From Minisyncoccota bacterium (GTDB taxonomy: Bacteria > Patescibacteriota > Minisyncoccia > Phycocordibacterales > UBA918), in assembly GCA_022841645.1 (NCBI GenBank), contig JALHRC010000003.1, positions 6,553-70,552 on the forward strand: a stretch of DNA of 64,000 nt, written 5' to 3'. Below are positions 29,884 through 45,513 of the stretch, piece after piece. Position 1 is the first letter of the stretch; each line of letters starts with the position of its first letter. The position numbers and the translations under genes were made by a program. Below the pieces are notes generated by a model, which searched no databases, was not told the origin of the DNA, and saw only the letters and a list, made by a program, of their open reading frames with translations.

Positions 29884-29990
29884 TTATTTCGTCTGCGACT
29901 CATAAAAATGCTCGTGTTCTTGGTCGGCCCCTCGCGTAGGTTGCTCCTTAGTGGTCGCAACCTACATGCGCCGGGGCTTCAAGTCCTGAC
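29851..29990 (+). repeat. repeat module A1: partial tRNA-Val 3'-end copy + AGAATCACGG + covarying hairpin
   Basis: CCGGTGCAGGACTTGACCC (29851-29869) repeats tRNA-Val 3' part; hairpin GTAGGTTGC...GCAACCTAC 29937-29966; homologous to module B1 at 45212-45350. Confidence 0.6.
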
Positions 29991-30044
29991 ACAACGCCCG
30001 CAGGGGCGTTGTTCACCACGCACCGTCGTCGCTATGCTCCTCAA

Positions 30045-30140
30045 GTGGGGTCAAGTTTCTAATTCGCTACGCTTATAAGAACTTGCTCCCCTGGCTCGCC
30101 TGTTTTCTGCTGTAGGGACGGAGCAGAAAACATGGCTCCG
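30045..30140 (+). repeat. repeat module A2 of structured repeat family
   Basis: GTGGGGTCAAGTTTCTAATTCGCTACGCTTATAAG...hairpin GTTTTCTGC..GCAGAAAAC (30102-30131)...CATGGCTCCGCCTCGCAC; aligns with C1/C2/D. Confidence 0.65.
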
Positions 30141-30182
30141 CCTCGCACTCGAGCCCGCACGCAAAACTGTTTGCGTGCTATA

Positions 30183-30303: not shown

Positions 30304-30479
30304 GTGAGTCGAAAGATGGTACCACGCGCCACAAAAATGTGAAATGCAGGTTTTGCTCGGGGGGCTTTTTTGAAGGTAAACCGCTGTTTTTTGGTGGCGG
30401 CGTAACCGTTCCGGGCTAAATGAGAATTAGTGAATTGTTCCAAAATTGCACCGGGTACTCTAGCGGGGAGGTGGTTTGT

Positions 30480-31648: not shown

Positions 31649-31716
31649 AGCAAAAGGTGCATTATTGAAGATGGACTACAACGCAACAGCTGCAAAACCC
31701 AAGGAGGATCGCAGCC

Positions 31717-32214
31717 ATGTCCTTTTTCACCACCCGCCGCCTGCTCGTCATCGCCGCGCTCGGCTTCGTCGTCGCCTGTGGGCCCGACAACCGCCCGCAG
31801 CCCGTCGCTTCGGCGCAGTCCGGCGCCCAGCCGGCCTTCGCGGTCATGCCGTCCACGGCCACGCCGCCGGCGCCCACCCAGGTCGCCATGCCGCTGACGG
31901 CCTCGGCCATCTCCGGCCGGTGGAGTCGCTCTGCGCAGTTCCTGGAGCGGAATCCGCAGATCGCCGATGCTCGTGTCGACTTCCAGGACGGTGTCATGAC
32001 CATCTATGATGCCCAAGGTGCTGTGCGCAATCGTGCTACCAGGGTCTCCGGCCAGTTCAATACCTATACGGAGTTCAGTGCCCAGACCATGACCCGGATC
32101 ACCTGGAGGTGCGATACCGTCTCCGAGGGCGCCGCGATTGCCTGCAATGCCGAGGCACTGTACCTCAACACCGGGAATACCAATCGTTGGACGTCCCGCT
32201 ACAGCAGAATCTGA
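31717..32214 (+). CDS. lipoprotein of high-GC (foreign) composition
   Basis: 165 aa; lipobox VVAC; about 68% GC versus about 53% host; followed by two strong terminators. Confidence 0.5.
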   Translation: MSFFTTRRLLVIAALGFVVACGPDNRPQPVASAQSGAQPAFAVMPSTATPPAPTQVAMPLTASAISGRWSRSAQFLERNPQIADARVDFQDGVMTIYDAQGAVRNRATRVSGQFNTYTEFSAQTMTRITWRCDTVSEGAAIACNAEALYLNTGNTNRWTSRYSRI

Positions 32215-32220
32215 GTCCAC

Positions 32221-32258
32221 AGGCCCTCTCCGCAGAAAACTTTCTGCGGAGAGGGCCT
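32221..32258 (+). terminator. perfect 18-bp-stem hairpin terminator
   Basis: AGGCCCTCTCCGCAGAAA-AC-TTTCTGCGGAGAGGGCCT; second hairpin GCGCCGGT-AACATGA-CCGGCGC at 32292-32314. Confidence 0.65.
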
Positions 32259-32351
32259 ACTAAAATTGGTGTACAATAAATAAGTTGCGTTTATGCGCCG
32301 GTAACATGACCGGCGCTTTTCCTTAGGTATAATTAGTCTACAATACTAGCC

Positions 32352-34310
32352 ATGTCCTACTCAGTCGTTGTACCTACTTACTGTCGTCCGGCGAAACTCA
32401 ATCAGTGTCTATGCACTTTGCTTGAACAATCTATCTTACCGGGGGAGGTTCTAGTTGTTGATGATGATTCCCCTGGGCAGGCCACACATCAAGTGTGTCT
32501 AGATTTGGATAATCTATTTCAGCAAAAAAATATCAACCTTAGGTACCTAAAACACAGTAAAAATCGCGGTCCTGCTGCGGCACGGAATACTGGGTTGCGA
32601 AGTGCCGTGTTTGAAACTGTCTTCTTTACAGATGATGACTGCATCTTGCCAACTGAGTGGGCTAGTAATCATATACGAACACATGAATGTCATGTCGACG
32701 CCGCTGCGGTCCATGGGTGGTACACTCCAAAGGCAGGTAAGAATATATATGACGAATACGAAGAGGTTTCTTTAAATCTTTTGCTTCCAGATTTTTTTAC
32801 GTCAGAAATATACGGAGACAGTCCCTTGGTCCCTCTTGCTAATACAGCAAATCTCTCAGTCAAAAAGAGTATTTTAGAGAAAGCCCAGGTATATTTTGAT
32901 GAAAGTATTGTTTTTACCGGTAATGAAGATTTTGAATTCTCCTTGAGTATAAATCAAAAAGGACTTAGTCGTGTCCATATCCCATTTTGTGTTATTCATG
33001 ACAGGGTGTGGGATCTCAGGAGCTACATCAAAGCTGGTGTTTTGCGAGGAAGAGGTCATGACTATTGCGTTCAGAAGTATTTTTTTGGAAGAGGACGAAA
33101 GAGTCTTTTTGCTTTTGTGTCAGTAGCATTGTTTAAGTCGTTTGAGTATGGTTCAAGAAGGTTGCATTTGGTTTTTCTTCTTACGTACTTAAGTCACTGG
33201 TTGGGCAAGACAGTCAACGTTGTAGCGAATTTCAAGCCGCCCCAACCGCTCACATTTGGTATAAGGGTTTCAAGCATGGCTTGGAAAAAAGAAGGTTTAA
33301 TTATCAGGAAACACGAGTGGCATCCCTTTTATGCGGCACATCGATACTCTAATAGGCCACCAAGCACAGGTAATACTTTTTGCTCAGTTATAGTGCCCAC
33401 TTATGATCGTTCGAGTTTATTAAAACTTCAACTTCCATATATTTTAAATCAGAGTATCAGCGCTGAACGTTATGAAATTATTATTGTTGATGACGGGTCA
33501 ACCGATGATACTGAAGAGGTTGTTTCGGATCTTGTTAAACGCAACCCAACTCATACTATTAGGTACATCTATCAAAAAAACCACGGTGCAGCAGCTGCTC
33601 GTAATGCTGGAGCAAAAATAAGTAAGGGCGACCTATTAATTTTTATTGATAGTGATGTGGTTCCTGACCGGCACTGGATTAGTGACCATGTATATGCACA
33701 TAGCTTATTTCCAGAAATATCAGCCGCCGGTGGAGGTCAAATTGTTGAAGCAGAAAACGCGACCATTTTTGACAAGCACAGAAATTCACTTTTTTGTAAT
33801 CAGTTTGCAAAAAGGTACCCTTATTCAACTCTAATTACTAACAATACCTTTCAGCGAGTTCATGCTTTTGACACAGGGAATTTGTCTATTAAAAAAAACG
33901 CCCTTGAATCCCTGGGCGGCTTTGATGAAGATCTATTAAGGCATCAAGATATGGAATTTGGTTTTAGACTACAGAACAGCGGTCGACTGGTTGCTTTGTT
34001 ACCAATTACGGTAAAATCGATAAGATCGACCACTTTCAGGGATTTTATAGATCTTGTCAGAAAACAGGCAATTTCGTACCCAATCCTTTTTCAAAAAATA
34101 AAGCCCTTACCGAAAGAATCATTGAGAATAAAAAACTCAATAGAGAACTACGGCATTTTAATGGCTTTGTTAAATTTTTTATTCAACATTAGCACCTTTG
34201 GCAGGGTTTATTTAATAGAGTGGTTTGTTTTAAAAAAGTACTACAAAACAGTACAGAGTCGTGAAGGCTCAAATTCAAATAATCACGATAGTTCGTTGTC
34301 CTCCGTTTAA
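32352..34310 (+). CDS. tandem family-2 glycosyltransferase (two GT-A domains)
   Basis: two copies of VVPTY..D(D)(D) and GxAAARNxG motifs (aa about 1-110 and about 335-440); AT-rich. Confidence 0.75.
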   Translation: MSYSVVVPTYCRPAKLNQCLCTLLEQSILPGEVLVVDDDSPGQATHQVCLDLDNLFQQKNINLRYLKHSKNRGPAAARNTGLRSAVFETVFFTDDDCILPTEWASNHIRTHECHVDAAAVHGWYTPKAGKNIYDEYEEVSLNLLLPDFFTSEIYGDSPLVPLANTANLSVKKSILEKAQVYFDESIVFTGNEDFEFSLSINQKGLSRVHIPFCVIHDRVWDLRSYIKAGVLRGRGHDYCVQKYFFGRGRKSLFAFVSVALFKSFEYGSRRLHLVFLLTYLSHWLGKTVNVVANFKPPQPLTFGIRVSSMAWKKEGLIIRKHEWHPFYAAHRYSNRPPSTGNTFCSVIVPTYDRSSLLKLQLPYILNQSISAERYEIIIVDDGSTDDTEEVVSDLVKRNPTHTIRYIYQKNHGAAAARNAGAKISKGDLLIFIDSDVVPDRHWISDHVYAHSLFPEISAAGGGQIVEAENATIFDKHRNSLFCNQFAKRYPYSTLITNNTFQRVHAFDTGNLSIKKNALESLGGFDEDLLRHQDMEFGFRLQNSGRLVALLPITVKSIRSTTFRDFIDLVRKQAISYPILFQKIKPLPKESLRIKNSIENYGILMALLNFLFNISTFGRVYLIEWFVLKKYYKTVQSREGSNSNNHDSSLSSV

Positions 34311-34324
34311 AAGCAACTCAATAT

Positions 34325-35851
34325 ATGGAATTAGACTCAGGGATATCAGATTTTACCACTCATGGTTCTGCAGAAAGACGTTTAATGTCTGAGGTTATTA
34401 AAGACTGCATATCTCACCCATTTACTCCGTTTAAGCCACTGCCAAGGAGCATTAAAGCCCTGGTTCTTTTTTGTTTATCCTGCGTTTGGTTTGTAGAGCT
34501 GCTTGGCAGGCGTAGATTCTTTACTGAAAGTAGTTTGGGCAATTTTTCAAATATTGATTCAAGAGTTCGGCGTGTTCTGGGTGAATTAGTCACACAGAAA
34601 GTGATTAAAATGTGGTACGTTTTTGCTACAAAATTATCGGGTGGGTCATCGGTGGTACAAGCGCTTATACAAATTGCTCCATACCAGGCTCCGAACGGCC
34701 TAATTTTTCCTTGGCCTGGTGGTTTAGCCTCTGGTGTAAGTATGAATCTGCACGACGCCATGTGCATAGCACTTGCCGAAACCGTCGAGCGCCACGCCTT
34801 GTACGCTTGGTCGTCAGAACGTAAATTTGAAGCTAGCTATAGAGAAGTTTTTAAAAAAGCTCTTCCGCTGCATGAGTTCAAACCTTACTCAGAGACACAA
34901 CTGTCAACACCGGATTTTTGGAACTGGTCTCTTAGGAATACTGATCAAAAGATGCTCTGGATGTGGTCAAATGAGTTTGTTTCTGGACTCCCCGTGTTAC
35001 TCCCCGCTCAACTCGTCTATTGTAACTATAACCAGGTTCGTCCCGACGAACAGCAGCTTTTAGAGGTTACTTCTAATGGCGTTGCAGCATCAACAAACCT
35101 TAAACTGGCGAGGCATAAAGCAATTTTGGAGGCAATTGAAAGGGACGCCTTTTTACTACATTGGCTTAACGAGACTCCACCCACATGCCTAGATATAGGT
35201 TCTATTGATGACGTTGAGATCCTGGGTCTGCTAGAAATTGTTAAAAAACATGACTACGAAATCACAATTCTCGATTTCCCCAATGATATACAGATACCCG
35301 TCATGGGAGCGCTCATGTTTGGTCCTTCTGGAAAAAGAGCCGTTACCATACAATTGGCTGCTGGCTTTGATGTAAGAGAAACCCTAAGGAAGGTAATTTT
35401 AGATTGCACTCGCTCGCTCCGCGTAGCTAATAGTGAAGTTTCGAAAAGCTTTTCCTACCAAGACATTATTAATAATCCCCAGTTAATTACAAATATAAAC
35501 AGCCGTCGCGAATTATGGCAACATCCAGAAATGATCCCCCATGTAAGTTTCTTAAAGAAAGGACAGGTCATTGGATGGCAGCAATATAAACATAACTATA
35601 GTCTACATTGCAGCATGTCTTTAAATGGTAAGGAGGAATGGGTGCGGACGCGTTTGCGATCACTAGGATATCAATGTTATGTAGCAAATATCACATCCAT
35701 CACAGCAAGACGTTATGGTCTGCATGTTACAAGAGCCTTTTTACCACAGCTCATACCAATGTATTTTGATGAGAAACGCGTCCCGCTCGGCATAATTAGA
35801 TTGAACAAAATGAGAGGCGGATTAAACACTGTTCCACACCCCTTCTTATAA
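34325..35851 (+). CDS. YcaO-domain protein
   Basis: GVSMNLHDAMCIALAETVERHALYAW and TSNGVAASTNLKLARHKAILEAIERDAFLLHWLN match the two hallmark YcaO ATP-binding motifs; about 130-aa N-terminal extension. Confidence 0.7.
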   Translation: MELDSGISDFTTHGSAERRLMSEVIKDCISHPFTPFKPLPRSIKALVLFCLSCVWFVELLGRRRFFTESSLGNFSNIDSRVRRVLGELVTQKVIKMWYVFATKLSGGSSVVQALIQIAPYQAPNGLIFPWPGGLASGVSMNLHDAMCIALAETVERHALYAWSSERKFEASYREVFKKALPLHEFKPYSETQLSTPDFWNWSLRNTDQKMLWMWSNEFVSGLPVLLPAQLVYCNYNQVRPDEQQLLEVTSNGVAASTNLKLARHKAILEAIERDAFLLHWLNETPPTCLDIGSIDDVEILGLLEIVKKHDYEITILDFPNDIQIPVMGALMFGPSGKRAVTIQLAAGFDVRETLRKVILDCTRSLRVANSEVSKSFSYQDIINNPQLITNINSRRELWQHPEMIPHVSFLKKGQVIGWQQYKHNYSLHCSMSLNGKEEWVRTRLRSLGYQCYVANITSITARRYGLHVTRAFLPQLIPMYFDEKRVPLGIIRLNKMRGGLNTVPHPFL

Positions 35852-35970
35852 ATTAAATCATTATTTTTTTGAATTTTACCTTTGCTTTATGAGAAAGGTG
35901 CAAGTAAAGTAGTGACCGTATGGTGTGCATAGACAGATTGCCTGCTTCTTGATCTGCTATAATAAATCCT

Positions 35971-37524
35971 ATGAGTTTTTCGTGGAAAACTAGCCTGGTC
36001 AAACTTTCTGAGAATCGCCCTCTCTGGCTTGTTGGGATGATGGTGCTGGTGTGGTTTGTTTTTGAGCCTGACTTCTTGGAGACAATATTTCAGTTTTTTG
36101 TAGTATTGTCGCAGGCTGCCGATGGTACGCCGTCAGGACAAGATTGCTCGTGCTGTGGAAATGCCCAAAATGGAGGGGAAAACTTCAACACATCAACACC
36201 TTTCTTGTGTGTTTATAAAAATGGTTCCTATGAAATTGACAATGATCTGATGTATGGCAAGAAGACAACTTTTTTTTCCAACTTTGAATTAGGAAGGCGT
36301 GTTTATGAAGAAGGAAGTCTCGTCCCTGAAATTTACAAAATCTCGACAAATCCTGATTTGATAGATGGAAAAATCAAACTACAGCTTATTGAGCTAGAAC
36401 CCGAGGATTCGTACATTGATACGGTTAAGTTATCAAAAATCATTTATCCTGCTACTGCTGAGTTGGTTGTTGATGCGTCTTTTAGCGGTATGTACGCGGT
36501 AAAACGTGACGACATTATTAACCGGGTGGGAGTTTCCGGGGTCAGCCTCACTCCGCAGTTTTTGGGCAATCGGCGATCAACTTCTCCTGAAATTAGTATT
36601 GAAAGATTATCTTCTGAACAACAATTCAATTCTCTTTGCCAAAAGAATCAGCCTGGCATACGCTTCGAAGACGGTGATGTCCTAGAAGTCACCGCTAAAG
36701 TTGAATCGCTTGAGGCCGATAAACTCCTTTTGTTTGTCGGGGCAAACTATCGAGACTGGCTGCTTTCTTCGGATGCGACACCGCGTACAGCACGGAAGAT
36801 CTTGAAGCGAACAGCTCTACTTAGTCCATTTTGGTCTAGTGCTGCTCGCGTTGCAATCATGATATTCATGCTTTTCCCGGTCTGGGTTGTTAGCTCGCTG
36901 CTGTCCACAAGCCGTCAGACAGCAAATGATGGTAGTGAAATGGACTTTATGCGAGCCTTTGGCATCCCCGCAACTAGTGCTGACGTTCCTTCTCGAACAC
37001 CGAAGTGTTTCAATGTGGAATATTGGGACGGTTCACATTTTGTGCCAATAACTTTTATTCAGCCACGATACTGTCACAGCACACTCGAGGCTGTGTCCGT
37101 ACCATGGGAAGCGGTGGACGGACAGGGTCTTCTTAAATTGAGACTAATCGCAACCAATACACACAATCTCTCTTATATCTCACTGGCCGCACCTTCGTCG
37201 TTGATGTTGTATAAATCAGCTGATCTCTCGCTCAGTTCGGCCCACTGCAATCGTGCTGGTGGTGACTCTACCGACGTACTCAGCTCGGAAAAAAATGCTT
37301 CATACGTTCATGTTATTCCTGCCGACACAATTGAGCTCGAGTTTACAGAACCAGGCAATTTTATTGCCAAAGAAGGCGAAAAGGAGTCCTACGTGATTAG
37401 TGTCCGCGGCTTTTACACTAGCCTTTCTGAGGAAAGTAAAGTAATTGCTGGAGACTGGGAATCAAGATTAAGTGAAGAGTCGGCTAACTGGCTGCAAGAA
37501 ATGGTTGCCATGGGACGACGCTAA
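35971..37524 (+). CDS. hypothetical membrane protein (517 aa)
   Basis: N-terminal and central TM segments; CSCCGNAQNGGE cysteine cluster; no known domain. Confidence 0.35.
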   Translation: MSFSWKTSLVKLSENRPLWLVGMMVLVWFVFEPDFLETIFQFFVVLSQAADGTPSGQDCSCCGNAQNGGENFNTSTPFLCVYKNGSYEIDNDLMYGKKTTFFSNFELGRRVYEEGSLVPEIYKISTNPDLIDGKIKLQLIELEPEDSYIDTVKLSKIIYPATAELVVDASFSGMYAVKRDDIINRVGVSGVSLTPQFLGNRRSTSPEISIERLSSEQQFNSLCQKNQPGIRFEDGDVLEVTAKVESLEADKLLLFVGANYRDWLLSSDATPRTARKILKRTALLSPFWSSAARVAIMIFMLFPVWVVSSLLSTSRQTANDGSEMDFMRAFGIPATSADVPSRTPKCFNVEYWDGSHFVPITFIQPRYCHSTLEAVSVPWEAVDGQGLLKLRLIATNTHNLSYISLAAPSSLMLYKSADLSLSSAHCNRAGGDSTDVLSSEKNASYVHVIPADTIELEFTEPGNFIAKEGEKESYVISVRGFYTSLSEESKVIAGDWESRLSEESANWLQEMVAMGRR

Positions 37525-37555
37525 TTTTTGAGCTAGTAATCTGAGCTAGTAATCT

Positions 37556-38668
37556 ATGAATAAAAAATTCATTCTAGGCGTCGTCGTAGCAGGTATTTTT
37601 CTGATAGGCATAATTTTTACAGTCTTCCTTTTTAACTCAAGTACTGAGCCTGCCGTAGAGCCTGGAAACGATTACACTACGGTGCCTGCCGTGACAGAGT
37701 CAGTACCAAAAGGAAAAATCTACCTGTCTCTTCGTACCCTGGGGACCAATCGGGTGGATTTATTCGCTTACGACTTCGAGAAGAAATCAATTGATCCGGT
37801 GCTGTCAACTGAGCCTGAAAAAATTCGCCATACAGGCGTTTTTAATGCTGAGGGCTCTCGCTTCGCCTACTTTGAGCTTTCGGAGTATAAGGAAGTCTAT
37901 GATTTTGGAACCTCTGGAGAAGACAATGAAATCCCTTGGAACCTTAAGGTCCGTGACTTTTCAAAGAAAAAAGCAACAACAGTATTCGATGTTATCTACA
38001 CTCTGAACACCCCTAGGTCACCGACATGGTCGCCTGATGGAACAAAGATTGCTTTTTCCTGGTGGTTAACTCAATCTGACATGGATGAGAAGTTCCGTGA
38101 TCTAAATAACTGGAGAATAAGCTGGCTTGAGCTTAACGACAAGTCTCAGTATAAAAATACAATTTCGCCATACTTCATTGGGACATCGCCTTTTTGGTCG
38201 CCCGATGGTAGCAGTATCATTTTTCAGAAGGCTGACGGCATATATCAAAAGTCGGTTGACACTCTTGAGGAGCAGCTTGTCCTCCCGCATCCGACAGGCA
38301 GTAGTACCAATCTTTTTTCTAAAATTGGTCTTTCGCCAGACAAGTCACTCTTTGCTTGGACATTTGTAGATTTTATTGAACATAATGCAGCTTCACTCGT
38401 TCTCTATCGGGTTGATTCATGGAGTCCATTCTCCGCACGCGCCGCTATTCGTCTTGAGGCCACTAACCCAGGATATCGTTATTACTGGCCGGTCTTTTCG
38501 CCAGATAACAAATACGTTACTGTACAGCGTATTATCCGTGACGCAGATAATAAGGCAGTGAGTTCTTCATTATGGGTATATGACGTTGAAACCGGAGAAA
38601 AGCAAGAAATTATTGACTTAATGGCCTACGACCCCGATGCCTTATTCATTTCTGATTGGAGATGGTAG
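37556..38668 (+). CDS. PD40/TolB-like beta-propeller repeat protein, membrane anchored
   Basis: repeated WSPDGTKIAFSW, WSPDGSSIIFQ, FSPDNKYVTVQ blades; N-terminal TM. Confidence 0.6.
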   Translation: MNKKFILGVVVAGIFLIGIIFTVFLFNSSTEPAVEPGNDYTTVPAVTESVPKGKIYLSLRTLGTNRVDLFAYDFEKKSIDPVLSTEPEKIRHTGVFNAEGSRFAYFELSEYKEVYDFGTSGEDNEIPWNLKVRDFSKKKATTVFDVIYTLNTPRSPTWSPDGTKIAFSWWLTQSDMDEKFRDLNNWRISWLELNDKSQYKNTISPYFIGTSPFWSPDGSSIIFQKADGIYQKSVDTLEEQLVLPHPTGSSTNLFSKIGLSPDKSLFAWTFVDFIEHNAASLVLYRVDSWSPFSARAAIRLEATNPGYRYYWPVFSPDNKYVTVQRIIRDADNKAVSSSLWVYDVETGEKQEIIDLMAYDPDALFISDWRW

Positions 38669-38680: not shown

Positions 38681-39478
38681 ATGAGTACACCCATTAGAGG
38701 CGGTTATTCTTTACTACTAGGCGGCACACTTCTTATGCTGTTTCTAGCCGCCTCTGGAAGTTTTTTCCATTTCGAAAACACAGCGCAGCTCTCGTTGTTG
38801 TACAGGGAAGACAAGCTGGGTCTTGCGAGCATATTTTTCTCCCGCGGGAATTATTACTTTGGGAAACAACCAGAGACCTATGACATCGAAAAAGCGGAGT
38901 GGAATTTCAAAACTGCCCTGCGTTTTGAAAATGTCCACAACGCACCCATTCATTATCAGTTAGGACGGGTGGCGTTTATCAAAGGTGACCTGCGTTTAGC
39001 TCTGGTGCACTTTAATGCACAACTCGAGGCCGATCCGACCTTTAACCGCAGCTACTACATGCGCGGCCTCACCTACGGTTATCTTAATAATTTTGCCAAG
39101 GCCGAAGAGGACTTTGCCGCCTACCTCGAGCGGGTCCCCGAGAGCTGGGCCGCGCACAACGACATCGTGTGGGTATATTTCCGTTCCGGACAATTCGCCA
39201 AAGCTGAAGAGTACGCCCGCAAAGGTCTAGCGGTCGCACCCGACAACGCCTGGCTTTCCAATGCCTTAGGAGGAATTTTGGTGAGTACTGGACGATACGA
39301 TGAAGCAGAGCCCTATTTACGTACTGCCCGTGAAGAATTTGAACTCATTGGTCCTGAAGGGTGGGGAAGGGCCTACCCAGGTAATGATCCTGCCATCTAC
39401 GAAATGGGATTTGAGGCCTCTCTAGCATCGGTTGACCACAATCTGTCCCTAGTAGCCAAAGCACAAAGTCGTGAATAA
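38681..39478 (+). CDS. TPR repeat protein with N-terminal TM anchor
   Basis: TPR-like 34-mer periodicity (AEEDFAAYLERVPESWAAHNDIVWVYFRSGQFAKAEEYARKGL). Confidence 0.6.
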   Translation: MSTPIRGGYSLLLGGTLLMLFLAASGSFFHFENTAQLSLLYREDKLGLASIFFSRGNYYFGKQPETYDIEKAEWNFKTALRFENVHNAPIHYQLGRVAFIKGDLRLALVHFNAQLEADPTFNRSYYMRGLTYGYLNNFAKAEEDFAAYLERVPESWAAHNDIVWVYFRSGQFAKAEEYARKGLAVAPDNAWLSNALGGILVSTGRYDEAEPYLRTAREEFELIGPEGWGRAYPGNDPAIYEMGFEASLASVDHNLSLVAKAQSRE

Positions 39479-39519: not shown

Positions 39520-41652
39520 GTGGACTACACTTTCATGTTCCCGCGCACTCTCTTGAGGCTCTCATACTGGCGTCTACTCGTAGTAGCTGTCGTCATGGCA
39601 ATAATTGCTGTTGCGTGGTGGACAGACGTTTTTGCCATCCAATCGGTGCCAGATAATGCGGCAACTGCTTACGACGCCGAGCTTTCGTTTGCAGCACATT
39701 CACCGCTTGGAAGTGACGGTGGTTCTGTTATCCCCGCGTCGTGTGATTCTGGTGTACTGCACTGGCCTGGCGATCTCGACGCCTGTCCAAGTGGCTGGGT
39801 GACGTATTGTTCAGGTGCGCTTCCTGGTGATCCTAACGGTCAGAACTGGCAGTGGTGGCGCTACTACGACAGTGCCGGGGGAAGAATTCATCGCTTCGTC
39901 AGTGAGGGCTATGGTACGTGCACTCCCGACGCTCCGTCGTCAATCAGCTACGAATGTTCACCTGATGGTCTTACTGCCACTACCACGTGGACCGCTTCCT
40001 ACGCAGCTGAAGCCTACTATCCGCGCATACAAGGCATCACTGTAGCGCAGTGTAGTGCCATGGGGTGGAATTGGTGGACCGATGGTGCAGGCACCAACAT
40101 TTGTTACAAAGATGCTTGGAATGCAACCTCAATGTTTACCTACGTTGGTAGTGGTTTTAATCGAGTGTATGTCCACTCTGGTCCGCCAGTCAATTGGAAC
40201 AAATTTGCTGATACTGGTTGGTTCCAGTGCCCAACAGCAACAGCCCTTCCTGCTCCCACACCCACCTACAGTTGCTCTGGTGATGGTACGCAGGTAACGG
40301 TGAATTGGAATGAGGTAGCTGGTGCGACCGAATACCATCCCCGCCTTTTGGGTATTACAGAAGCGCAGTGCAATGCTATCAGTGGCGGTGTTGGGTGGTT
40401 CTTTGATGCCAGTTCTAATTCCTGTGCATACAACAATCTTCCTGCAAGTTGGGGTACGCCACCGCGACAGCTTACCTTCAATCTTCGCCCCGGGGGGTAT
40501 CAGCACGCTTTTTGGGTACATGCAAGTAGGGATGCGATTCCCGAGACTACTAGTCCAGCTGGATCAACTGGATACTTCTCCTGCCTTCCCGCCCCCACCA
40601 ACCTAAGTGGTTCGTGTAGTGCCGATGGTACCGAAGGAACTATCACCTGGACAGCACCCGCGGGCTACACTACTTTCTACACACGCGCTAGTGCCGTGGC
40701 TCAGGGTAGGAATGACCTCGTTGGTGTACCCAACACAACAGATGATCCGTGGGATGATAATGTGGTTGGCACCTCGAAGTCATTTACTACCGATCCTGGC
40801 GAAACCTACTACGTCTGGATACACACTAAAAATACTACTAATGGAACGTGGAGTGATCCTGCAAGAACGCAGTTCACCTGCCCCGATTCGCTTGCCGGAA
40901 CACCTCCTCCGTCACCGCGGTTAAACTCCGCTATCTGTAGACCTGATCCGAGCGATCCGTCAGTTGGTCTGGTCACGCTTAGTTGGGAACGCGAAGCACG
41001 TGCTACCAGTTACGATGTACGGGCGCGCTGGATCAATCCTTCAACGGAAACCAACCCAGCAGAAGCTTGCCCTAATGGTAAGTACAGTACGCAGGAGCGG
41101 TGGTGTTGGAATTCGGTTGGACAAAGTTTCACTACGGGCTACTCTCAAACCAATGACACAGCGAGTTTCTCTTTCAGTGGCTTGCCGCTTGATAATAATA
41201 AGAATTATACGTGGTGGGTACACTCTAGAAACGCTGCCGGGTCAAGTAACCCTCCATCACACGCGAATAGCAATATAACGTTTACCTGTGCCGTGGGTAC
41301 TCCACCGGAGGCTGGTGACCCGCCAGCGGTCCTTGCCCTCACTGCTACTCCCAGCCTTATTCTTCCCGGACGCACGACTACCCTCAACTATCGCATAGAG
41401 GCACCGTATGACATGGACTGTACGATAACCGGCGGTGACAGCAGTTATCCTGAAATTAACTACCGGCCAACGCCGTCCCTACCAGTAACTGGTGCTGGTA
41501 TTCCGTATCTAGAGGACACTATTTCTTCAGCACCGATAGTTGCCACCACTAACTTTGTACTTAGTTGCGATCCGGTACCTAATATAAACCCGCCTGGTGA
41601 ACGAGAAGCCAGTGTCCGTGTGGAGATCGTACCAACATTTGAAGAACGGTAG
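39520..41652 (+). CDS. secreted/membrane-anchored repeat protein, paralog family member 1 (710 aa)
   Basis: signal anchor; CPSGWVTYCSG...NWQWWRY module; repeated FN3-like segments; shares RWxxxSTxxxPxxxCPNGKYSTQERWC block with 43109-44428. Confidence 0.45.
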   Translation: MDYTFMFPRTLLRLSYWRLLVVAVVMAIIAVAWWTDVFAIQSVPDNAATAYDAELSFAAHSPLGSDGGSVIPASCDSGVLHWPGDLDACPSGWVTYCSGALPGDPNGQNWQWWRYYDSAGGRIHRFVSEGYGTCTPDAPSSISYECSPDGLTATTTWTASYAAEAYYPRIQGITVAQCSAMGWNWWTDGAGTNICYKDAWNATSMFTYVGSGFNRVYVHSGPPVNWNKFADTGWFQCPTATALPAPTPTYSCSGDGTQVTVNWNEVAGATEYHPRLLGITEAQCNAISGGVGWFFDASSNSCAYNNLPASWGTPPRQLTFNLRPGGYQHAFWVHASRDAIPETTSPAGSTGYFSCLPAPTNLSGSCSADGTEGTITWTAPAGYTTFYTRASAVAQGRNDLVGVPNTTDDPWDDNVVGTSKSFTTDPGETYYVWIHTKNTTNGTWSDPARTQFTCPDSLAGTPPPSPRLNSAICRPDPSDPSVGLVTLSWEREARATSYDVRARWINPSTETNPAEACPNGKYSTQERWCWNSVGQSFTTGYSQTNDTASFSFSGLPLDNNKNYTWWVHSRNAAGSSNPPSHANSNITFTCAVGTPPEAGDPPAVLALTATPSLILPGRTTTLNYRIEAPYDMDCTITGGDSSYPEINYRPTPSLPVTGAGIPYLEDTISSAPIVATTNFVLSCDPVPNINPPGEREASVRVEIVPTFEER

Positions 41653-41707
41653 TAAGTGTTGTTTGAGAACCTCGTGCTAACATTGTAGGAGCAGAAAGAT
41701 TTATTCT

Positions 41708-42130
41708 ATGTACCCTTGGCTACAAAAAATACATACAAATGTGGTCAAAAGACCGCTAGCGATGTTATTAATCGCGGTCTGTATTGCACAGCTAGTTTTT
41801 GTTATCGCACCAGCTTTTTCGTTCGTGGAAGAGATTGTGCGTGTAACAACAGCTGCCTCGGCTACCACGGTAGAGGCACAGGATAAGGTGCCGCCACACG
41901 CCGGTATTTTGCGGCGCACCTGGGTGCCTCCCGTATTTGAAGATCGTTGTGAGCAGGCGTGTGGCCACGATGACAATGGTTCTTTTTGCTGGAATGATTG
42001 TGGACCAAAGTATGCTGGTGGTGGGTACTTTACCGAAAGCTGTGACCCCGGCTACTACCTGACCCGCTACTATCTCAATCTAGTCAACGACGCCAACGCT
42101 ATTTGGTGGCAGTGTAATAGCCTTGAATAA
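41708..42130 (+). CDS. small secreted Cys/Trp-motif protein, paralog family member 2
   Basis: 140 aa; N-terminal TM; C-terminal CDPGYYLTRYYLNLVNDANAIWWQCNS. Confidence 0.4.
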   Translation: MYPWLQKIHTNVVKRPLAMLLIAVCIAQLVFVIAPAFSFVEEIVRVTTAASATTVEAQDKVPPHAGILRRTWVPPVFEDRCEQACGHDDNGSFCWNDCGPKYAGGGYFTESCDPGYYLTRYYLNLVNDANAIWWQCNSLE

Positions 42131-42132
42131 GT

Positions 42133-42459
42133 ATGACAAACACATCTCTTACCCTCTACTACGTACGTGATGCCATGGCGTCACTCGCAGTTCTGGTCGT
42201 GGTGGTGCTGGCGACGTTTGTCACCTTGCTGGAAGCGCGGGTGCTGCCAGCGTCGCTGGTGTCGAGCGTCATAGTGACCCAGAGTGCGCAAGCAGCTACC
42301 TGGGAAGCACGTGTCGGGCGGCTTCACTGGAACGGCAATCCCTATCCAGGTGCACAAGTGTGGTGGTGTGATCCCGGTTATTGGCTCACGTCAAATTACC
42401 TCGCCGTAGATAATACCAACAATACCATCTGGTATAACTGTGTCACCGGTGCCTGGTAG
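42133..42459 (+). CDS. small secreted Cys/Trp-motif protein, paralog family member 3
   Basis: 108 aa; C-terminal WCDPGYWLTSNYLAVDNTNNTIWYNCVTGAW parallels member 2. Confidence 0.4.
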   Translation: MTNTSLTLYYVRDAMASLAVLVVVVLATFVTLLEARVLPASLVSSVIVTQSAQAATWEARVGRLHWNGNPYPGAQVWWCDPGYWLTSNYLAVDNTNNTIWYNCVTGAW

Positions 42460-42496
42460 CTTTACTTTCGTCTGTAGTACATCACATCATTGCGCT

Positions 42497-43099
42497 ATGA
42501 ATCCACCACTAACACCACTAACACCGTCCACTACTCCGGTTCCTTCGCCTACCTACGCACGTGTGCGCACCGCAGTGGGTGTGATAGCGGTGCTGTACCT
42601 AGCGGCTCTTCTGGGAGTGTACACTTGGCACGCCTACCGAGGCGCTGTTGCACAGGCACCAGAACTACCGGTATTTGTGACTGATGTGAAGGCTCTCACT
42701 GGTGTCGTGGGAGAGATACGTGATAATGAATTTGTCTTACACCTCGACACATTACCCCCCGACATGCCAGTCGCGCTGGCTGAGCGCACTGTTTTGCTAA
42801 GTGACACAACGACATTTAAAGCTCGGCAACCAAAAGATCCTGCGGTGTTTGCGCAAGAACTTACCACCTACCACCGAGAAAACACCTACTATGGTTTTGG
42901 GCGAGCCACTGATACAGCTGAGACGGCTCGTGAGGTAGCTGACCTACCCCCGCTTCCCCCTGAACCATTTACCTATGAGGAGGTCGGGCGCGAGCAACTT
43001 CAAAGTGGGGCGGTGGTGACGGTACTAGCCCAGGAAAATATCTATGAGGCATCTCGAATTATTCCCACTGAGGTGATGGTGCAGCAACTACCAAATTAG
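42497..43099 (+). CDS. hypothetical membrane-anchored protein
   Basis: ATG at 42497 (MNPPLTPL) then TM; Pro/Thr-rich linker. Confidence 0.35.
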   Translation: MNPPLTPLTPSTTPVPSPTYARVRTAVGVIAVLYLAALLGVYTWHAYRGAVAQAPELPVFVTDVKALTGVVGEIRDNEFVLHLDTLPPDMPVALAERTVLLSDTTTFKARQPKDPAVFAQELTTYHRENTYYGFGRATDTAETAREVADLPPLPPEPFTYEEVGREQLQSGAVVTVLAQENIYEASRIIPTEVMVQQLPN

Positions 43100-43108
43100 T
43101 CACTCGCT

Positions 43109-44428
43109 ATGTTTCGTTCTTTTTTAAGCTCATGGTCACTTACTGCTGGATTGTCGGTGCTGAGTGTCCCCGTAGCGATGGTGGCCTGGTTTGTGGTGGT
43201 GCCACTCCTTCTAGGACAAGCCTTTACACCCACCACAGAGGCTCAGGGTGGGGTATGTTTTCCAAGAACGGCTGTTGCTCCTTATGCTGCTTGGTACGGC
43301 GGCTTCTACTGCGCGCCCGGCTACACACTTGTCTATCACTACTACCAGCCTGGTGGTCGGGAAAATAGCAACTGGTATGAGTGTGTCAGTGAGCAGTGTG
43401 CTAACCCAAAACCACCAGGGCCCGAGGTGGTCTGGACTGAATATTGTACTGGTGAAGGAAACACCAATCCGACCGTCGATTGGCAATGGTGGCGCTATTC
43501 AAATGAGGTGTCACCACGCTACGAGCGGGTGCGTGCCGGTGATGGTACCTGCACCCCGCCCCCTCCGGCCGAAATAGTGTGGACCCAATATTGTACTCGC
43601 GACCTGCAGTCTGACCCTACCCGCAATTGGCAGTGGTGGCGTGTTTCCAACGAAACACCAGCGCGTCATGAATTTGTGCGTGCTGGTGATGGCCTGTGCG
43701 CACCGCCGACGAGCGTTACCCTCAACCCACCCCGTCTCCTCTCAGCGACGTGTGAAGTCGACCCTGCTAACCCTACGACGGGAAGAGTAGAGCTGCGCTG
43801 GGAGGAGGTGTCGGGTGCGACGGGCTATGATCTGCGAGTACGTTGGGACGACGCCTCAACCCGCGACGCCCCAGTTGGTGAACGTTGTCCGAATGGTAAG
43901 TACAGTACGCAGGAGCGCTGGTGCTTTAACAATCAGCCAGGAAATGGTGGGTCATTCGTTCTTACCGGTCTTCCCCTCAGTACGGAAAAGCGCTACGTCT
44001 GGTGGCTACACTCACGCACTGGTAACAACACGAGCGTTCAGACCCATTCGACGTTGGACACCTCGTTTAAGTGCTTACCTGACGACACCATAAATCCAGA
44101 TGATAGTGACCCTCTTCCAGTAGCGCCAGTAGTCACTATGGGTGCTCGTTCGTGGCTGGTCCAAGCGGGTACACCGGCTCAACTCTATTGGAGTGTGGTG
44201 GCCACCTATCCTGTACGTTGTGAGCTGACGGGAGGTACCACACGCCGTACTTTCTCTTATCTAGCAGGTGGTGGCACGGTGTCTGTTGATGCCCCCTTTG
44301 TTACTGATCCGGTTGTTGGCACGACCCGTTTTGGTTTGGTGTGTCAGCCTGATCCGTCTATAGACGGCGTAGCTTCAGGTAATGCGGTAACGGTGATAGA
44401 TGTCACAGCAACGGTTGACCCGTTGTAG
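43109..44428 (+). CDS. secreted repeat protein, paralog family member 4 (439 aa)
   Basis: YCAPGYTLVYHYYQPGGRENSNWYECVSEQC module; duplicated NWQWWR repeats; CPNGKYSTQERWCF block shared with member 1. Confidence 0.45.
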   Translation: MFRSFLSSWSLTAGLSVLSVPVAMVAWFVVVPLLLGQAFTPTTEAQGGVCFPRTAVAPYAAWYGGFYCAPGYTLVYHYYQPGGRENSNWYECVSEQCANPKPPGPEVVWTEYCTGEGNTNPTVDWQWWRYSNEVSPRYERVRAGDGTCTPPPPAEIVWTQYCTRDLQSDPTRNWQWWRVSNETPARHEFVRAGDGLCAPPTSVTLNPPRLLSATCEVDPANPTTGRVELRWEEVSGATGYDLRVRWDDASTRDAPVGERCPNGKYSTQERWCFNNQPGNGGSFVLTGLPLSTEKRYVWWLHSRTGNNTSVQTHSTLDTSFKCLPDDTINPDDSDPLPVAPVVTMGARSWLVQAGTPAQLYWSVVATYPVRCELTGGTTRRTFSYLAGGGTVSVDAPFVTDPVVGTTRFGLVCQPDPSIDGVASGNAVTVIDVTATVDPL

Positions 44429-45211: not shown

Positions 45212-45350
45212 GGAAGCGGAGAGATTTGACCCAGAATCGCGGCTCTTTTACTTCGCTACGCTTGTAAAAGTGACTCGCGTTCTCGGTCGACACCTCGCGT
45301 GTTTTACTCTTTGACGTCGCAAAACACAAGCTCCGGTGCTTCAAATCCCT
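45212..45350 (+). repeat. repeat module B1: partial tRNA-Ser 3'-end copy + AGAATCGCGG + covarying hairpin
   Basis: GGAAGCGGAGAGATTTGACCC (45212-45232) repeats tRNA-Ser 3' part; TTCGCTACGCTTGTAAAAG 45252-45270; hairpin GTGTTTTAC...GCAAAACAC 45299-45327; T-loop-like GGTGCTTCAAATCCCT 45335-45350. Confidence 0.6.
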
Positions 45351-45387
45351 ACGTACCGTGCGCAGGCACGGTACTCCGCTTCCGCGA

Positions 45388-45421
45388 ACAAAATATGCGT
45401 CCACAAGGGACGCTATTTTGT
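45388..45421. terminator. terminator hairpin 3' of tRNA-Ser, nested in a 13-bp inverted repeat with the tRNA 3' end
   Basis: ACAAAATATGCGTCC-ACAA-GGGACGCTATTTTGT; outer CTCCGCTTCCGCG (45375-45387) complements CGCGGAAGCGGAG (45426-45438). Confidence 0.6.
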
Positions 45422-45426
45422 ACTCG

Positions 45427-45513
45427 CGGAAGCGGAGGGATTTGAACCCTCGATAGAGTTTCCCCTATGCCGGTTTTCGAAACCGGTACCTTCAACCACT
45501 CAGCCACGCTTCC
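45427..45513 (-). tRNA. tRNA-Ser (anticodon CGA), type II with long variable arm
   Basis: reverse complement: acceptor GGAAGCG/CGCTTCC, discriminator G, anticodon stem CCGGT/ACCGG loop TTCGAAA, T-arm GAGGG-TTCAAAT-CCCTC. Confidence 0.85.

Follow-up and report, generated by a model that had tools for sequence, protein, structure and literature searches.

Modular surface proteins built from FN3/Ig-like domains (Big, CARDB, PKD-type), for instance monoderm adhesins and S-layer-associated proteins, are the closest described counterparts of the gene cluster reported here. The cluster shares with them an N-terminal export signal or anchor and tandem beta-sandwich domains with FN3/Ig matches in Foldseek and a weak match to Pfam fn3, and relatives carry CARDB and fn3 domains. 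However, none of the domains in the cluster attains a Pfam gathering score, Cys residues flank every FN3-like domain, the cluster lacks LPXTG, S-layer-homology and other known anchoring motifs, and it has two undescribed mini-modules together with a TPR gene as conserved partner. A second comparison, an analogy rather than a database match, is with small aromatic repeats that bind carbohydrates or cell walls (CBM5/12 chitin-binding, choline-binding and LysM-type repeats). Like these repeats, the mini-modules are units of about 40-50 aa rich in Trp, Tyr, Asn and His; one of them, CxPGY, is found at the ends of secreted proteins, singly or as three copies in tandem, and in one case lies next to a lytic transglycosylase gene. 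By contrast, the mini-modules have no sequence or profile match to such families, and binding by them is putative. Based on the data below, we suggest that the interval probably holds operon-like genes for the cell envelope of a Patescibacteria (CPR) bacterium, which would encode a Sec-exported surface assembly.

In the window (the whole 64-kb stretch of DNA that was analyzed), the ORFs of p710, p140, p108 and p439 (710, 140, 108 and 439 aa) all lie on the + strand. An earlier note on this DNA had described an interval of four genes and overlooked a fifth, p219, between p108 and p439 (42440/42497-43099). The genes are closely packed, with gaps of 2-55 nt, and no convincing terminator was found inside the cluster. 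They are real genes, and all five proteins are already called in public collections, the 108-aa ORF being omitted by one gene caller. Every peptide quoted previously was located in the sequence, and the N-terminal signal or anchor sequences ascribed to all proteins agree with hydropathy analysis, which gave one N-terminal hydrophobic segment per protein. Cys counts of the ectodomains are even (20 in p710, 6 in p140, 2 in p108, 0 in p219 and 14 in p439). In a six-frame translation of the window, the CxPGY and NWQWW motifs were not found elsewhere. Upstream, a gene at 38681-39478 (+) encodes a membrane-anchored TPR protein of 265 aa that matches multiple Pfam TPR families (E about 6e-17). The TPR protein and p710 are a pair kept across several Patescibacteria: in L002, L003 and L005, a TPR gene immediately precedes that of the large protein (55-59% and 37% identity).

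p710 (39520-41652, +) is all-beta, contains 20 Cys and is anchored at its N-terminus; gene callers start it at ATG 39535, giving 705 aa. Its transmembrane or signal-anchor segment (about residues 17-40; 39568-39639, +) contains the sole Kyte-Doolittle windows above 1.6. It is followed by a head motif, AELSF...GGSVIPASCDSGVLHWPGDLDAC (residues 53-89; 39676-39786, +), whose alignment columns are invariant in the p710 orthologue P0003 (40% identical, E 6e-121) and both L003 paralogues, and by one NWQWW mini-module delimited from alignments (residues 90-139, with Cys97 and Cys134; 39787-39936, +). Four Cys-bracketed FN3-like domains come next (about residues 140-237, 245-355, 359-454 and 463-590; 39937-41289, +), recognized by the repeated pattern C...W...Y.R...W(V/I)H...F.C in sequence and alignments and by a sub-threshold Pfam fn3 match at residues 358-450 (22.3 bits vs a cut-off of 25). 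p710 has no other match in Pfam and none in PDB, NCBIfam or PHROG. The C-terminal Ig-like domain (about residues 600-705; 41317-41634, +) aligns with residues 336-437 of p439 and terminates in VEIVPTFEER. A further relative of p710, P0010, is from a Patescibacteria MAG.

Alignments, AF2 and Foldseek identify p439 (43109-44428, +) as a chimeric paralogue of p710 with a signal or anchor. It consists of a CxPGY module (residues 50-97; nt 43256-43399), two NWQWW modules (residues 105-150 and 154-199; nt 43421-43558 and 43568-43705), an FN3-like domain with the CPNGKYSTQERWC loop (residues 205-322; nt 43721-44074) and an Ig-like domain (residues 336-437; nt 44114-44419), all on the + strand. About 300 C-terminal residues of p710 and p439 align with 33% identity (E 9e-39). 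This paralogous stretch corresponds to the C-terminal FN3-like and Ig-like pair and includes CPNGKYSTQERWC, which sits in the last (fourth) FN3-like domain of p710, in agreement with the previous proposal of an extra motif common to the two proteins. An alignment was obtained between their NWQWW segments as well (E 2e-8 and 5e-8). AF2 modelled p439 as all-beta, with a pLDDT of about 70-80 in the FN3-like and Ig-like parts, the latter forming a beta-sandwich, and below 50 in the N-terminal half. Its best Foldseek matches are tandem FN3/Ig ectodomains (Ihog, integrin beta4, CD45, KIR). On this fold-search result the two large proteins are FN3/Ig-like, as fits surface or adhesin-type proteins. 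At the DNA level, the 39-nt CPNGKYSTQERWC patch in p710 (41067-41105, +) has about 90% identity to p439 at 43885-43923 (92% over 39 nt in blastn; 0.90 in codon windows vs a median of 0.49 across the aligned region). The CPNGKYSTQERWC peptide is not conserved in P0003. Judging from the sequence, the patch is likely a micro gene-conversion tract between p710 and p439.

Four genes had been proposed to share one module. This holds for p140, p108 and p439, while p710 stands apart. The CxPGY module is a ~45-aa unit, G-x-LHW...F-x-CDxGYxL...NNxxWYxC, with two invariant Cys at an ungapped spacing of C-x23-C; p140, p108 and p439 (at its N-terminus) carry it, and p710 does not. The three pairwise comparisons gave BLASTP E-values of 2e-8, 4e-4 and 3e-5 and shuffle z-scores of 10.9, 5.1 and 5.9, the observed score being reached in 0/300 shuffles, whereas p108 vs p710 gave z = 0.0 and no significant BLAST match. 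The "CPSGWVTYC...NWQWWRY" stretch of p710, taken earlier for the shared Cys module, belongs to the NWQWW module, a ~48-aa two-Cys unit with one copy in p710 and two in p439. The p439 repeats are 49 aa apart (nt 43481 and 43628), so their period is not the FN3-like spacing previously ascribed to them. In a profile-profile comparison, CxPGY and NWQWW matched with 3.6% probability. Thus, the two are unrelated mini-modules with different distributions, and the idea of a single module common to four genes is wrong.

The NWQWW module also occurs in L003 (twice), L005, L006, L007 (twice) and L018; large exported proteins with this module come from Nomurabacteria, Saccharibacteria and further Patescibacteria. 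CxPGY constitutes a genuine domain family: when its profile was scanned against 1.84 billion proteins, the members recovered were P0029, P0039, P0034 (two copies), P0046, P0043, P0016 and P0026, all with N-terminal signal-like sequences and the last two with three tandem C-terminal copies each. The module extends beyond Patescibacteria to proteobacterial secreted proteins with three tandem copies. In other phyla, mobile-element genes lie near CxPGY proteins (ArdC/DUF736 for P0016 and NikA/MobC for P0043). In L013, the gene immediately before that of a CxPGY protein encodes an SLT_2 lytic transglycosylase (Pfam E 2.5e-9); in L017, an upstream gene fragment resembles the C-terminus of the L013 SLT_2 protein by eye and has no Pfam match. 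Both mini-modules, whose alignments are shallow, gave no match in Pfam, NCBIfam, PHROGs, PDB sequence searches or Foldseek, and no experimentally studied or annotated relative came to light. By sequence comparison they appear to lie outside the described domain families searched, with a likeness to Sushi at the motif level only.

p140 (41708-42130, +) has an N-terminal anchor followed by a Cys-rich insert (residues 73-104; nt 41924-42019, +), and its C-terminus is formed by a CxPGY module (residues 105-140, with Cys112 and Cys136; nt 42020-42127, +). Its insert is weakly similar to a loop of p710 (residues 500-533; E 3e-4, z 5.3) and is absent from its 100-aa orthologue P0039 (E 3e-12). p108 (42133-42459, +) has an N-terminal anchor and one CxPGY module (residues 61-108, with Cys79 and Cys103; nt 42313-42456, +), and its 103-aa orthologue P0029 (49% identical, E 2e-24) shares the CVTGAW end. 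In the AF2 model of the p108 ectodomain (pLDDT 71), two short strands accompany a long beta-hairpin closed at the two invariant Cys positions. p219 (p200; 42497-43099, +; longest ORF from GTG 42440) is a single-pass membrane protein with a Cys-free ectodomain and without a match in Pfam, NCBIfam, PDB or PHROG; it is no paralogue, yet belongs to the conserved unit.

The four genes downstream of p710 each have a positional orthologue, with 26-50% identity, in L008/L009/L010, contigs of a related metagenomic genome that, because of these identities, is not the window's own population. The p219 orthologue (220 aa, E 6e-16) lies at the equivalent position, and a p219 homologue follows module proteins in L017 (tblastn 1e-5). 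The p439 orthologue is a 542-aa ORF in L008 (E 2e-22) with a near-identical N-terminus (CFPRTAV...GGFYC..GY...NNS.WYEC), and in L009 the C-terminus of a p710-like gene precedes the orthologous cassette. The cassette is absent from the same locus in L002 and is thus dispensable in at least one relative. This gene-for-gene conservation, together with the absence from L002, indicates that p140-p108-p219-p439 is a long-standing cassette rather than the product of recent expansion. As a result, of the proposed "lineage-specific expanding family", the lineage-restricted tandem of exported Cys/Trp-rich proteins stands, but not the expansion.

Among other readings, it is conceivable but improbable that p140 and p108 act as secreted mini-proteins resembling bacteriocins or toxins, with p219 as immunity or export factor and p439 as a surface-displayed version. 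The two proteins are small, Trp-rich and apparently exported with one disulfide staple; an Ala-x-Ala/Gln-type motif, read from the sequences, lies just ahead of the module in p108, P0029, P0039 and p140; module genes in the window, L008/L009/L010 and L017 are followed by a gene for a p219-type single-pass membrane protein; and CxPGY proteins stand among mobile-element genes in other phyla (P0016, P0043). However, genes for a transporter, a protease or a typical immunity factor are lacking, and no similarity to bacteriocin families was found in Pfam, NCBIfam or PDB. Moreover, CxPGY also stands at the N-terminus of a large structural-type protein and forms C-terminal triple repeats in large secreted proteins, a pattern typical of binding modules.

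Somewhat less probable still, CxPGY could be a divergent bacterial Sushi/CCP (complement control protein, or SCR; PF00084) domain. Both are beta-rich, extracellular units of about 45-60 aa that occur in tandem and share the core (F/Y)-x-C-x-x-G-Y-x-L followed by a Trp and a closing Cys about 20 residues on; profile searches retrieve many eukaryotic Sushi-repeat proteins (P0015, P0017, P0018, P0027, P0028, P0035) and, in PDB, complement receptor 2 (summed E 1.8e-9). This significance arises only from summing repeats, the best single-repeat match having 14.7 bits and an independent E of 0.26, and matches span about 11-27 residues per repeat. CxPGY has two invariant Cys compared with four in Sushi, and its N-terminal G-x-LHW-D-x-NW segment and NNxxWYxC end are missing from Sushi. 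Pfam, including Sushi, assigned no family to p140, p108 or p439 (E up to 1) or to seven other members (E up to 0.01), and Foldseek with the p108 model returned no Sushi structure.

We consider it very unlikely that p140 and p108 are RiPP-like precursors modified by the upstream GT2-YcaO cluster and released as peptides, in line with the earlier note's alternative of small members as substrates of the adjacent modification cluster. As in YcaO-dependent RiPP clusters (thiazole/oxazole-modified microcins, thioamitides), small Cys-containing ORFs lie near a YcaO gene (34325-35851, E 2e-45), which with a GT2 gene is 5.8 kb upstream of p140, and L005 and L018 have YcaO genes within 10 kb of NWQWW-type proteins. 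By contrast with such clusters, the candidate precursors are predicted membrane-targeted folded domains, not adjacent to YcaO; the PD40, TPR and p710 genes intervene, and the N-termini of p140 and p108 are hydrophobic and membrane-type rather than leader peptides. The module has only two invariant Cys and is also a folded domain within proteins of 439-782 aa, alphaproteobacterial ones included. The GT2-YcaO-517aa-PD40 block, with an IS481-type integrase, lies between tRNA-Val and the TPR gene, has a GC content of 0.40-0.44 vs 0.51-0.55 elsewhere and is missing from that position in L003, a syntenic relative. The YcaO cluster thus looks like a separate low-GC island, which weakens the substrate idea; the orthologous cassette is kept on the 7-kb L008 contig without YcaO, and next to its YcaO gene L018 carries a Gly/Cys-rich precursor candidate of its own. 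Finally, that the motifs reflect chance or composition in spurious ORFs, or that p140 and p108 are decaying duplicates of the p439 5' end, finds a basis in the uncalled 108-aa ORF and in their signal-plus-module layout like the p439 N-terminus, but is refuted by the conservation data. Against it stand shuffle z-scores of 5-11, entries for all five proteins in public collections, p108 and p140 orthologues matching in length, position and C-terminus, and further CxPGY members across phyla.

In the cell-envelope reading that we favor, all five proteins would leave the cell via Sec, fold oxidatively outside it and form a surface-attached assembly, probably binding something at a cell surface. p710 would contribute an N-terminal anchor, head motif, one NWQWW module, a disulfide-bracketed FN3-like string and an Ig-like end; p140 and p108 would essentially be an export signal or anchor with one ~45-aa disulfide-stapled, aromatic/Asn-rich beta-hairpin module; and p439 would combine CxPGY and two NWQWW modules with an FN3-like and Ig-like pair copied from the p710 lineage. 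The FN3/Ig domains would act as spacers and the aromatic mini-modules as putative ligand-binding parts, as suggested by composition, tandem-repeat architecture and one kind of neighbor gene; the ligand would most plausibly be a glycan or cell-wall ligand of the own cell or of a host. With a "Patescibacteria group bacterium" as the closest relative that bears a name, the epibiont framing proposed earlier is reasonable, and these putative surface proteins are candidates for a role as adhesins or in host interaction and may assist in host attachment. The locus represents a conserved cluster of predicted exported, disulfide- and Trp-rich proteins made from shuffled small modules.

The interval 39520-44428 carries a conserved, operon-like set of genes for exported, beta-rich proteins with paired Cys residues, and our comparisons show that two small modules within these proteins behave as mobile domains. 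An earlier note had counted four genes here; these four are all present as plus-strand ORFs, but the count falls short, as five closely packed ORFs lie on this strand. They are p710 (39520-41652; started at 39535 by the gene callers, giving 705 aa), p140 (41708-42130), p108 (42133-42459), p219 (42440-43099; likely true start at 42497, giving 200 aa) and p439 (43109-44428), each named by its length in aa. The intergenic gaps from p710 to p439 are 2-55 nt, and at its end the cluster meets a convergent endonuclease/exonuclease/phosphatase gene head-to-tail; a promoter and terminator scan for operon boundaries gave nothing decisive. The proposal that all members have an N-terminal signal or anchor sequence holds, in that hydropathy analysis finds exactly one hydrophobic segment per protein, at the N-terminus. 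Outside this segment, p710, p140, p108, p219 and p439 contain 20, 6, 2, 0 and 14 Cys residues, all even numbers, and Trp makes up 3.6-6.5% of the four proteins with Cys (p710, p140, p108 and p439). p219 is a membrane protein with a single pass and no Cys; we detected no relatives of it in Pfam, NCBIfam, PDB or PHROGs. The exact sequences of all five proteins are in public collections as singleton clusters, and the sole near-identical copy of the window is a Logan contig (L001; 99.99% identity).

A single Cys/Trp module had been attributed to p710, p140, p108 and p439. This is correct for the last three but not for p710. p140, p108 and p439 have in common a C-x-PGY...W-x-C motif with identical C-x23-C spacing (Cys112/136, Cys79/103 and Cys68/92, respectively), and their pairwise alignments are significant by BLASTP (E 2e-8, 4e-4 and 3e-5) and by Smith-Waterman comparison with shuffled sequences after removal of the N-terminal 45 residues (z 10.9, 5.1 and 5.9). 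By contrast, there is no BLAST match between p108 and p710 and their z-score is 0.0; the p710 string CPSGWVTYC...NWQWWRY, which had been taken for this module, is the beginning of a second module. We define the first, CxPGY, as a ~45-aa unit G-x-L-H-W...F/W-C-D-x-G-Y-x-L...N-N-x-x-W-Y-x-C with two invariant Cys. In p140 and p108, a single CxPGY module follows the N-terminal hydrophobic segment and a spacer and forms the extreme C-terminus; a conserved A-x-A/Q site directly precedes it. An AlphaFold2 (AF2) model of the p108 ectodomain (pLDDT 71, core 75-84) has two short strands and a 10+10-residue beta-hairpin with the invariant Cys pair at its ends.

Further CxPGY members were recovered by running a three-sequence profile with HMMER over the full set of 1.84 billion representatives, which was decisive; a word-indexed search with the CxPGY profile recovered p108 alone. 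The scan found the proteins P0029, P0039, P0034, P0046, P0043, P0016 and P0026. P0029 (103 aa) is 49% identical to p108 and has the same CVTGAW end, P0039 (100 aa) is of the p140 type, P0034 has two modules, and P0016 and P0026 each have three tandem modules at the C-terminus. P0026 comes from a MAG annotated as Alphaproteobacteria and has an OmpA gene nearby, while the neighbours of P0016 are ArdC/DUF736 genes and those of P0043 NikA/MobC genes. CxPGY reaches beyond the phylum, to alphaproteobacterial and mobile-element-borne secreted proteins. The alignment of 16 copies gives the consensus xGxLHWDxxWTxxNFWCDxGYxLxxxHxxxGxSNNAxWYxC with two invariant Cys, spaced by 23 residues in the three window copies and most others and by 25 in one P0034 copy. 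On contig L017, a p219 homologue comes after two CxPGY-module proteins (96 and 140 aa). On contig L013, a gene for an SLT_2 lytic transglycosylase (88-798; E 2.5e-9) lies directly upstream of a gene for a CxPGY mini-protein; a partial gene upstream of the L017 pair (26-286) resembles it by eye and has no Pfam match.

The second module, NWQWW, is a ~48-aa unit W-T-x-Y-C-T-G...N-W-Q-W-W-x-Y...F/Y-x-R-x-G-D-G-x-C-x-P, again with two invariant Cys. It is present once in p710 and twice in p439 and missing from p140 and p108; the p710 segment aligns to both p439 segments (E 2e-8 and 5e-8). The p439 copies are 49 residues apart and, therefore, the FN3-like spacing ascribed to these repeats is wrong. 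NWQWW is also found in other large exported proteins, from Nomurabacteria, Saccharibacteria and a further Patescibacteria genome, and in an alignment of 11 copies from six genomes the residues W, C, W-x-W-W, G and C are invariant. A six-frame translation of the window contains neither motif elsewhere. We reject a common origin of the two modules because hhalign of the 11-copy NWQWW alignment against the CxPGY alignment gives a probability of only 3.6%.

The two large proteins resemble each other well beyond these motifs, as the earlier note had implied, and are clear paralogues over the last ~300 residues (33% identity, E 9e-39). Reading of the sequence and alignments with orthologues give the layout of p710 as an anchor, a conserved head AELSF..GGSVIPASCDSG..H.PGDLDAC, the NWQWW module, four FN3-like domains, each bracketed by its first and last Cys, and a C-terminal Ig-like domain ending in VEIVPTFEER. 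p439 begins with a signal/anchor and the CxPGY module, the latter flanked by an additional Cys pair; both NWQWW copies come next, and then a single FN3-like domain, which bears the CPNGKYSTQERWC loop, and an Ig-like domain. Modelled by AF2 from a five-sequence alignment, p439 is all-beta; the model is poor overall (mean pLDDT 54), and only the FN3-like (205-305) and Ig-like (340-435) regions, with pLDDT ~70-80, are usable. Foldseek against PDB matches it to the tandem FN3/Ig ectodomains of Ihog, integrin beta4, CD45 and KIR (E ~2e-5, probability 1.0), with TM-scores of 0.15-0.37, low values that we ascribe to the several domains and the low overall confidence of the model.

The peptide CPNGKYSTQERWC, inside the paralogous C-terminal region, is identical in p710 and p439. 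The 39-nt tracts encoding it (41067-41105 and 43885-43923) are ~90% identical, compared with a median of 49% for 13-codon windows of the aligned region, and the peptide is not conserved in P0003, the p710 orthologue. This contrast points to a probable micro gene conversion between the two genes. Similarly, relative contig L003 has tandem paralogues of 636 aa, with two NWQWW copies, and 862 aa whose C-terminal domain (~100 aa) is identical. Together, the CPNGKYSTQERWC tract and the identical L003 C-termini indicate ongoing exchange between tandem copies. A weaker likeness connects p140 and p710: the Cys-rich insert of p140 (residues 73-104), which is missing from the p140 orthologue, resembles the p710 loop RARWINPS...ACPNGKYSTQERWCWN (E 3e-4, z 5.3).

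We also observed a recurrent C-terminal tail, V-x-V-(I/V/L)-P-x-x-x-E-(R/I/Q), after the last Ig-like domain and with no hydrophobic segment behind it. It is carried by p710 (41620-41649), P0003, both L003 paralogues, the 822-aa, 1235-aa and 542-aa ORFs of contigs L005, L007 and L008, and the surface protein P0013 (e.g. VEIVPTFEER, VEVIPQTQPR, VDVIPEQQEI, VNLLPSYIEQ, VGIKPTEHEI, VEVVPLFKER and VSLDPMYNE); p439, which ends in ...TATVDPL, is without it. This tail may be a recognition or sorting signal.

Assignment of the shared motifs to a common, known domain found no support, as neither mini-module matches any family. Searches of Pfam, NCBIfam and PHROGs with the five proteins, the 11 NWQWW copies and seven CxPGY homologues returned only sub-threshold fn3 and spurious DUF matches; PDB sequence and profile searches with p710, p219 and both module profiles returned only a motif-level Sushi match and an insignificant LytM match; and Foldseek of the CxPGY module model against PDB and BFVD returned no match. 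The fn3 model (PF00041) matches the third FN3-like domain of p710 (residues 358-450) with 22.3 bits (E 1.6e-4), below the gathering score of 25 bits, and does not match p439 at E up to 1. p710 and p439 belong to the broad, known kind of modular FN3/Ig-like bacterial surface proteins while falling below every family threshold.

Only Sushi/CCP repeats gave a recurrent signal with CxPGY. Many top matches in the CxPGY profile scan are eukaryotic Sushi/CCP proteins, and among PDB sequences complement receptor 2 reaches a summed E of 1.8e-9. However, the likeness is limited to F-x-C-D-x-G-Y-x-L and a later Trp, and the PDB Sushi profile matches cover only an 11-27-residue core (best single repeat, 14.7 bits). 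Sushi/CCP (PF00084) has four conserved Cys (C1-C3, C2-C4) in ~60 aa, whereas the 16 CxPGY copies have two invariant Cys; the Pfam Sushi model matches no true CxPGY member; and Foldseek of the p108 ectodomain model against PDB gives no match at E <3 and lists no CCP structure, a result that is not decisive as the model is small and of medium confidence (pLDDT 71). We treat the similarity as a motif-level likeness of the sequences and consider CxPGY very unlikely to be a Sushi/CCP repeat. Sortase-type, C-terminally sorted proteins do not fit either, because there is no LPXTG, the only hydrophobic segment is N-terminal, and the C-termini read ...VEIVPTFEER (p710), ...WWQCNSLE (p140), ...CVTGAW (p108) and ...TATVDPL (p439). 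Type IV pilins or pseudopilins are rejected since the five N-termini have no class III signal and no G-(F/M)TLIE-type motif, and a beta-trefoil since there was no trefoil-like match.

Word-indexed searches recovered very little, namely P0003 (40% identity to p710, E 6e-121), P0010 from a 'Patescibacteria group bacterium' MAG and a few distant FN3-containing proteins; a scan of genome contigs found four loci only, in three genomes; scans of metagenome contigs for p439-type and p108-type genes gave no confirmed locus; and a literature search on this protein family found nothing. A membrane TPR gene lies immediately upstream of the large protein in the window and on contigs L002, L003 and L005 (a Candidatus Nomurabacteria MAG), with TPR identities to the window of 55-59% in L002 and L003 and 37% in L005. 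On L008, L009 and L010, from two unrelated metagenomes, a p710-like C-terminus (...VEVVPTLEER) is followed by genes for 100-aa, 103-aa, 220-aa and 542-aa proteins and then by GlmS, tRNA-Ser, SnoaL, AhpC and DUF305. The four genes are the best matches of p140, p108, p219 and p439 (E 3e-12, 2e-24, 6e-16 and 2e-22), with identities of 26-50% and saturated synonymous sites. The 542-aa protein keeps the N-terminal CxPGY module and the C-terminal Ig-like domain and has a different middle domain where p439 has its NWQWW modules, which indicates domain shuffling. These comparisons show that the constant partners are the TPR protein for the p710 type and p219 for the small module proteins.

The same comparisons bear on the suggestion of an expanding family. 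L002 and L008 are about equally close to the window (AhpC, 88% versus 90%; SnoaL, 70% versus 48%), but in L002 the p710 orthologue is followed 63 nt on by tRNA-Ser, and the p140-p108-p219-p439 cassette is absent. Because the cassette is conserved gene for gene in L008, L009 and L010 and absent at the same site in L002, it is not a recent expansion but an old unit that genomes either have or lack at a single chromosomal site.

The small proteins had alternatively been suggested to be substrates of an upstream modification cluster, i.e. p140 and p108 would be RiPP precursors processed by a YcaO protein. This cluster occupies 30430-38668, between tRNA-Val(gac) and the TPR gene, and comprises an IS481-like integrase (30430-31641), a double GT2 glycosyltransferase, YcaO (508 aa), a membrane protein of 517 aa (containing ...GQDCSCCGNAQNGG...) and a PD40 beta-propeller. 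In favour of the suggestion, L005 and L018, the latter a Patescibacteria contig (GCA_903951795.1), have YcaO genes no more than 10 kb away from NWQWW-type proteins. Against it, p140 and p108 are at least 5.8 kb from YcaO with three unrelated genes between; the block has a GC content of 0.40-0.44 versus 0.51-0.55 elsewhere; in the syntenic L003, the TPR gene directly follows tRNA-Val and the block is absent, for which reason we regard it as probably a horizontally acquired island; YcaO is missing from the 7-kb cassette contig L008; and L018 has its own obvious precursor candidate next to YcaO, a Gly/Cys-rich ORF of 105 aa. Moreover, p140 and p108 have transmembrane-like N-termini in place of a soluble leader, and their C-terminal part is a conserved module, folded in the p108 model, with two invariant Cys rather than a Cys/Ser/Thr-rich core of the RiPP type. 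Because of the evidence from position, GC content, L003, L008 and L018, we regard the YcaO block as an island separate from the surface-protein cluster, and consider a RiPP role of p140 and p108 very unlikely. YcaO nevertheless recurs loosely near NWQWW/FN3-like surface proteins in the window, L018 and L005. In L018 (7662-13514), the NWQWW/FN3-like P0013 is followed by a PD40-like protein, a 299-aa protein, YcaO, the 105-aa ORF, a likely RiPP precursor with the tail GGGGGGDGGCGEGGGGSQGECGGGGSEGGGGCQGS, a TPR-like protein and a second YcaO; in L005, YcaO is ~7 kb from the TPR and large-protein pair.

The tRNA genes of the window have a feature of their own, a structured RNA-like element of ~130-185 nt (~160) that directly adjoins the 3' side of tRNA-Ser(cga) and tRNA-Val(gac) and shares their strand. 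With a covariance model derived from the two window copies, we detected five copies, all on the minus strand, in three Patescibacteria genomes (window, 45213-45372, 29850-30010 and 30033-30176; L003, 8022-8152; L008, 5066-5249; E 1e-40 to 1e-5), each time at this position. The two best copies are 74-77% identical, and each copy ends in a resemblance to the 3' T-arm/acceptor of the neighbouring tRNA. In the model-fitted alignment, 96.5% of cells are paired and both sides have changed in 35 of 54 pairs; not one of 500 shuffles attains these values, and slid controls are 33-43% paired. The element has no match in Rfam and is a candidate for a new tRNA-linked ncRNA or an ancient mini integrative element. 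Between it and tRNA-Ser lies a 64-nt near-palindrome (45374-45437; ~83% self-complementary) with a bidirectional terminator-like hairpin at 45397-45413. Elsewhere, positions 12001-16000, over the genes for an 864-aa TPR protein and a MurJ flippase, have an AT skew of -0.21 to -0.28, far from the rest of the window.

Taken together, the earlier observation is confirmed in part, and its interpretation as adhesin-like surface proteins is supported in part. We hold the descriptive part, i.e. the genes, the modules and their conservation, with high confidence, and the explanation as a whole to be somewhat more probable than its opposite. In this explanation, the proteins would be located at the surface and disulfide-bonded, the FN3/Ig domains would act as spacers, and the aromatic, Asn-rich mini-modules would be the ligand-binding parts, with a glycan or cell-wall component as the probable ligand. 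The composition of the modules, their terminal triple repeats in other bacteria and the one lytic-transglycosylase neighbour suggest such binding; a function in binding or adhesion is, however, tentative. In an epibiotic CPR cell, these proteins could serve in attachment or envelope organisation. We also considered that CxPGY works in threes, with p140, p108 and the p439 N-terminus co-assembling at the membrane into a hetero-trimeric ligand-binding base that would hold the p439 stalk, with p219 as a possible assembly factor, while the Proteobacteria with P0016 and P0026 would have the three units fused in tandem in one chain. Were the ligand a host cell-wall glycan, such an assembly would give epibiotic CPR bacteria an attachment device unknown so far, based on a new domain family. 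The one line of evidence for working in threes is copy number, i.e. 1+1+1 in the window and in L008 and three each in P0016 and P0026; P0034, with two copies, is on a short, truncated contig. However, P0043 has a single copy and the long-hairpin p108 model is unlike a trefoil subunit, and we regard this arrangement as improbable.

The locus is a genuine, fairly ordinary CPR surface-protein finding; new here are a conserved four-gene cassette and two mini-domain families absent from domain databases. Uncharacterised Cys-rich surface proteins are numerous in CPR genomes. Patescibacteria live attached to other microbes and, to our knowledge, little is understood of how they recognise and hold their hosts beyond type IV pili. 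The locus offers a compact, conserved candidate set of a TPR protein, two stalk proteins, two mini-proteins and one membrane protein, and the module definitions allow the parsing of hundreds of "hypothetical" surface proteins and provide small, expressible domains for binding assays.
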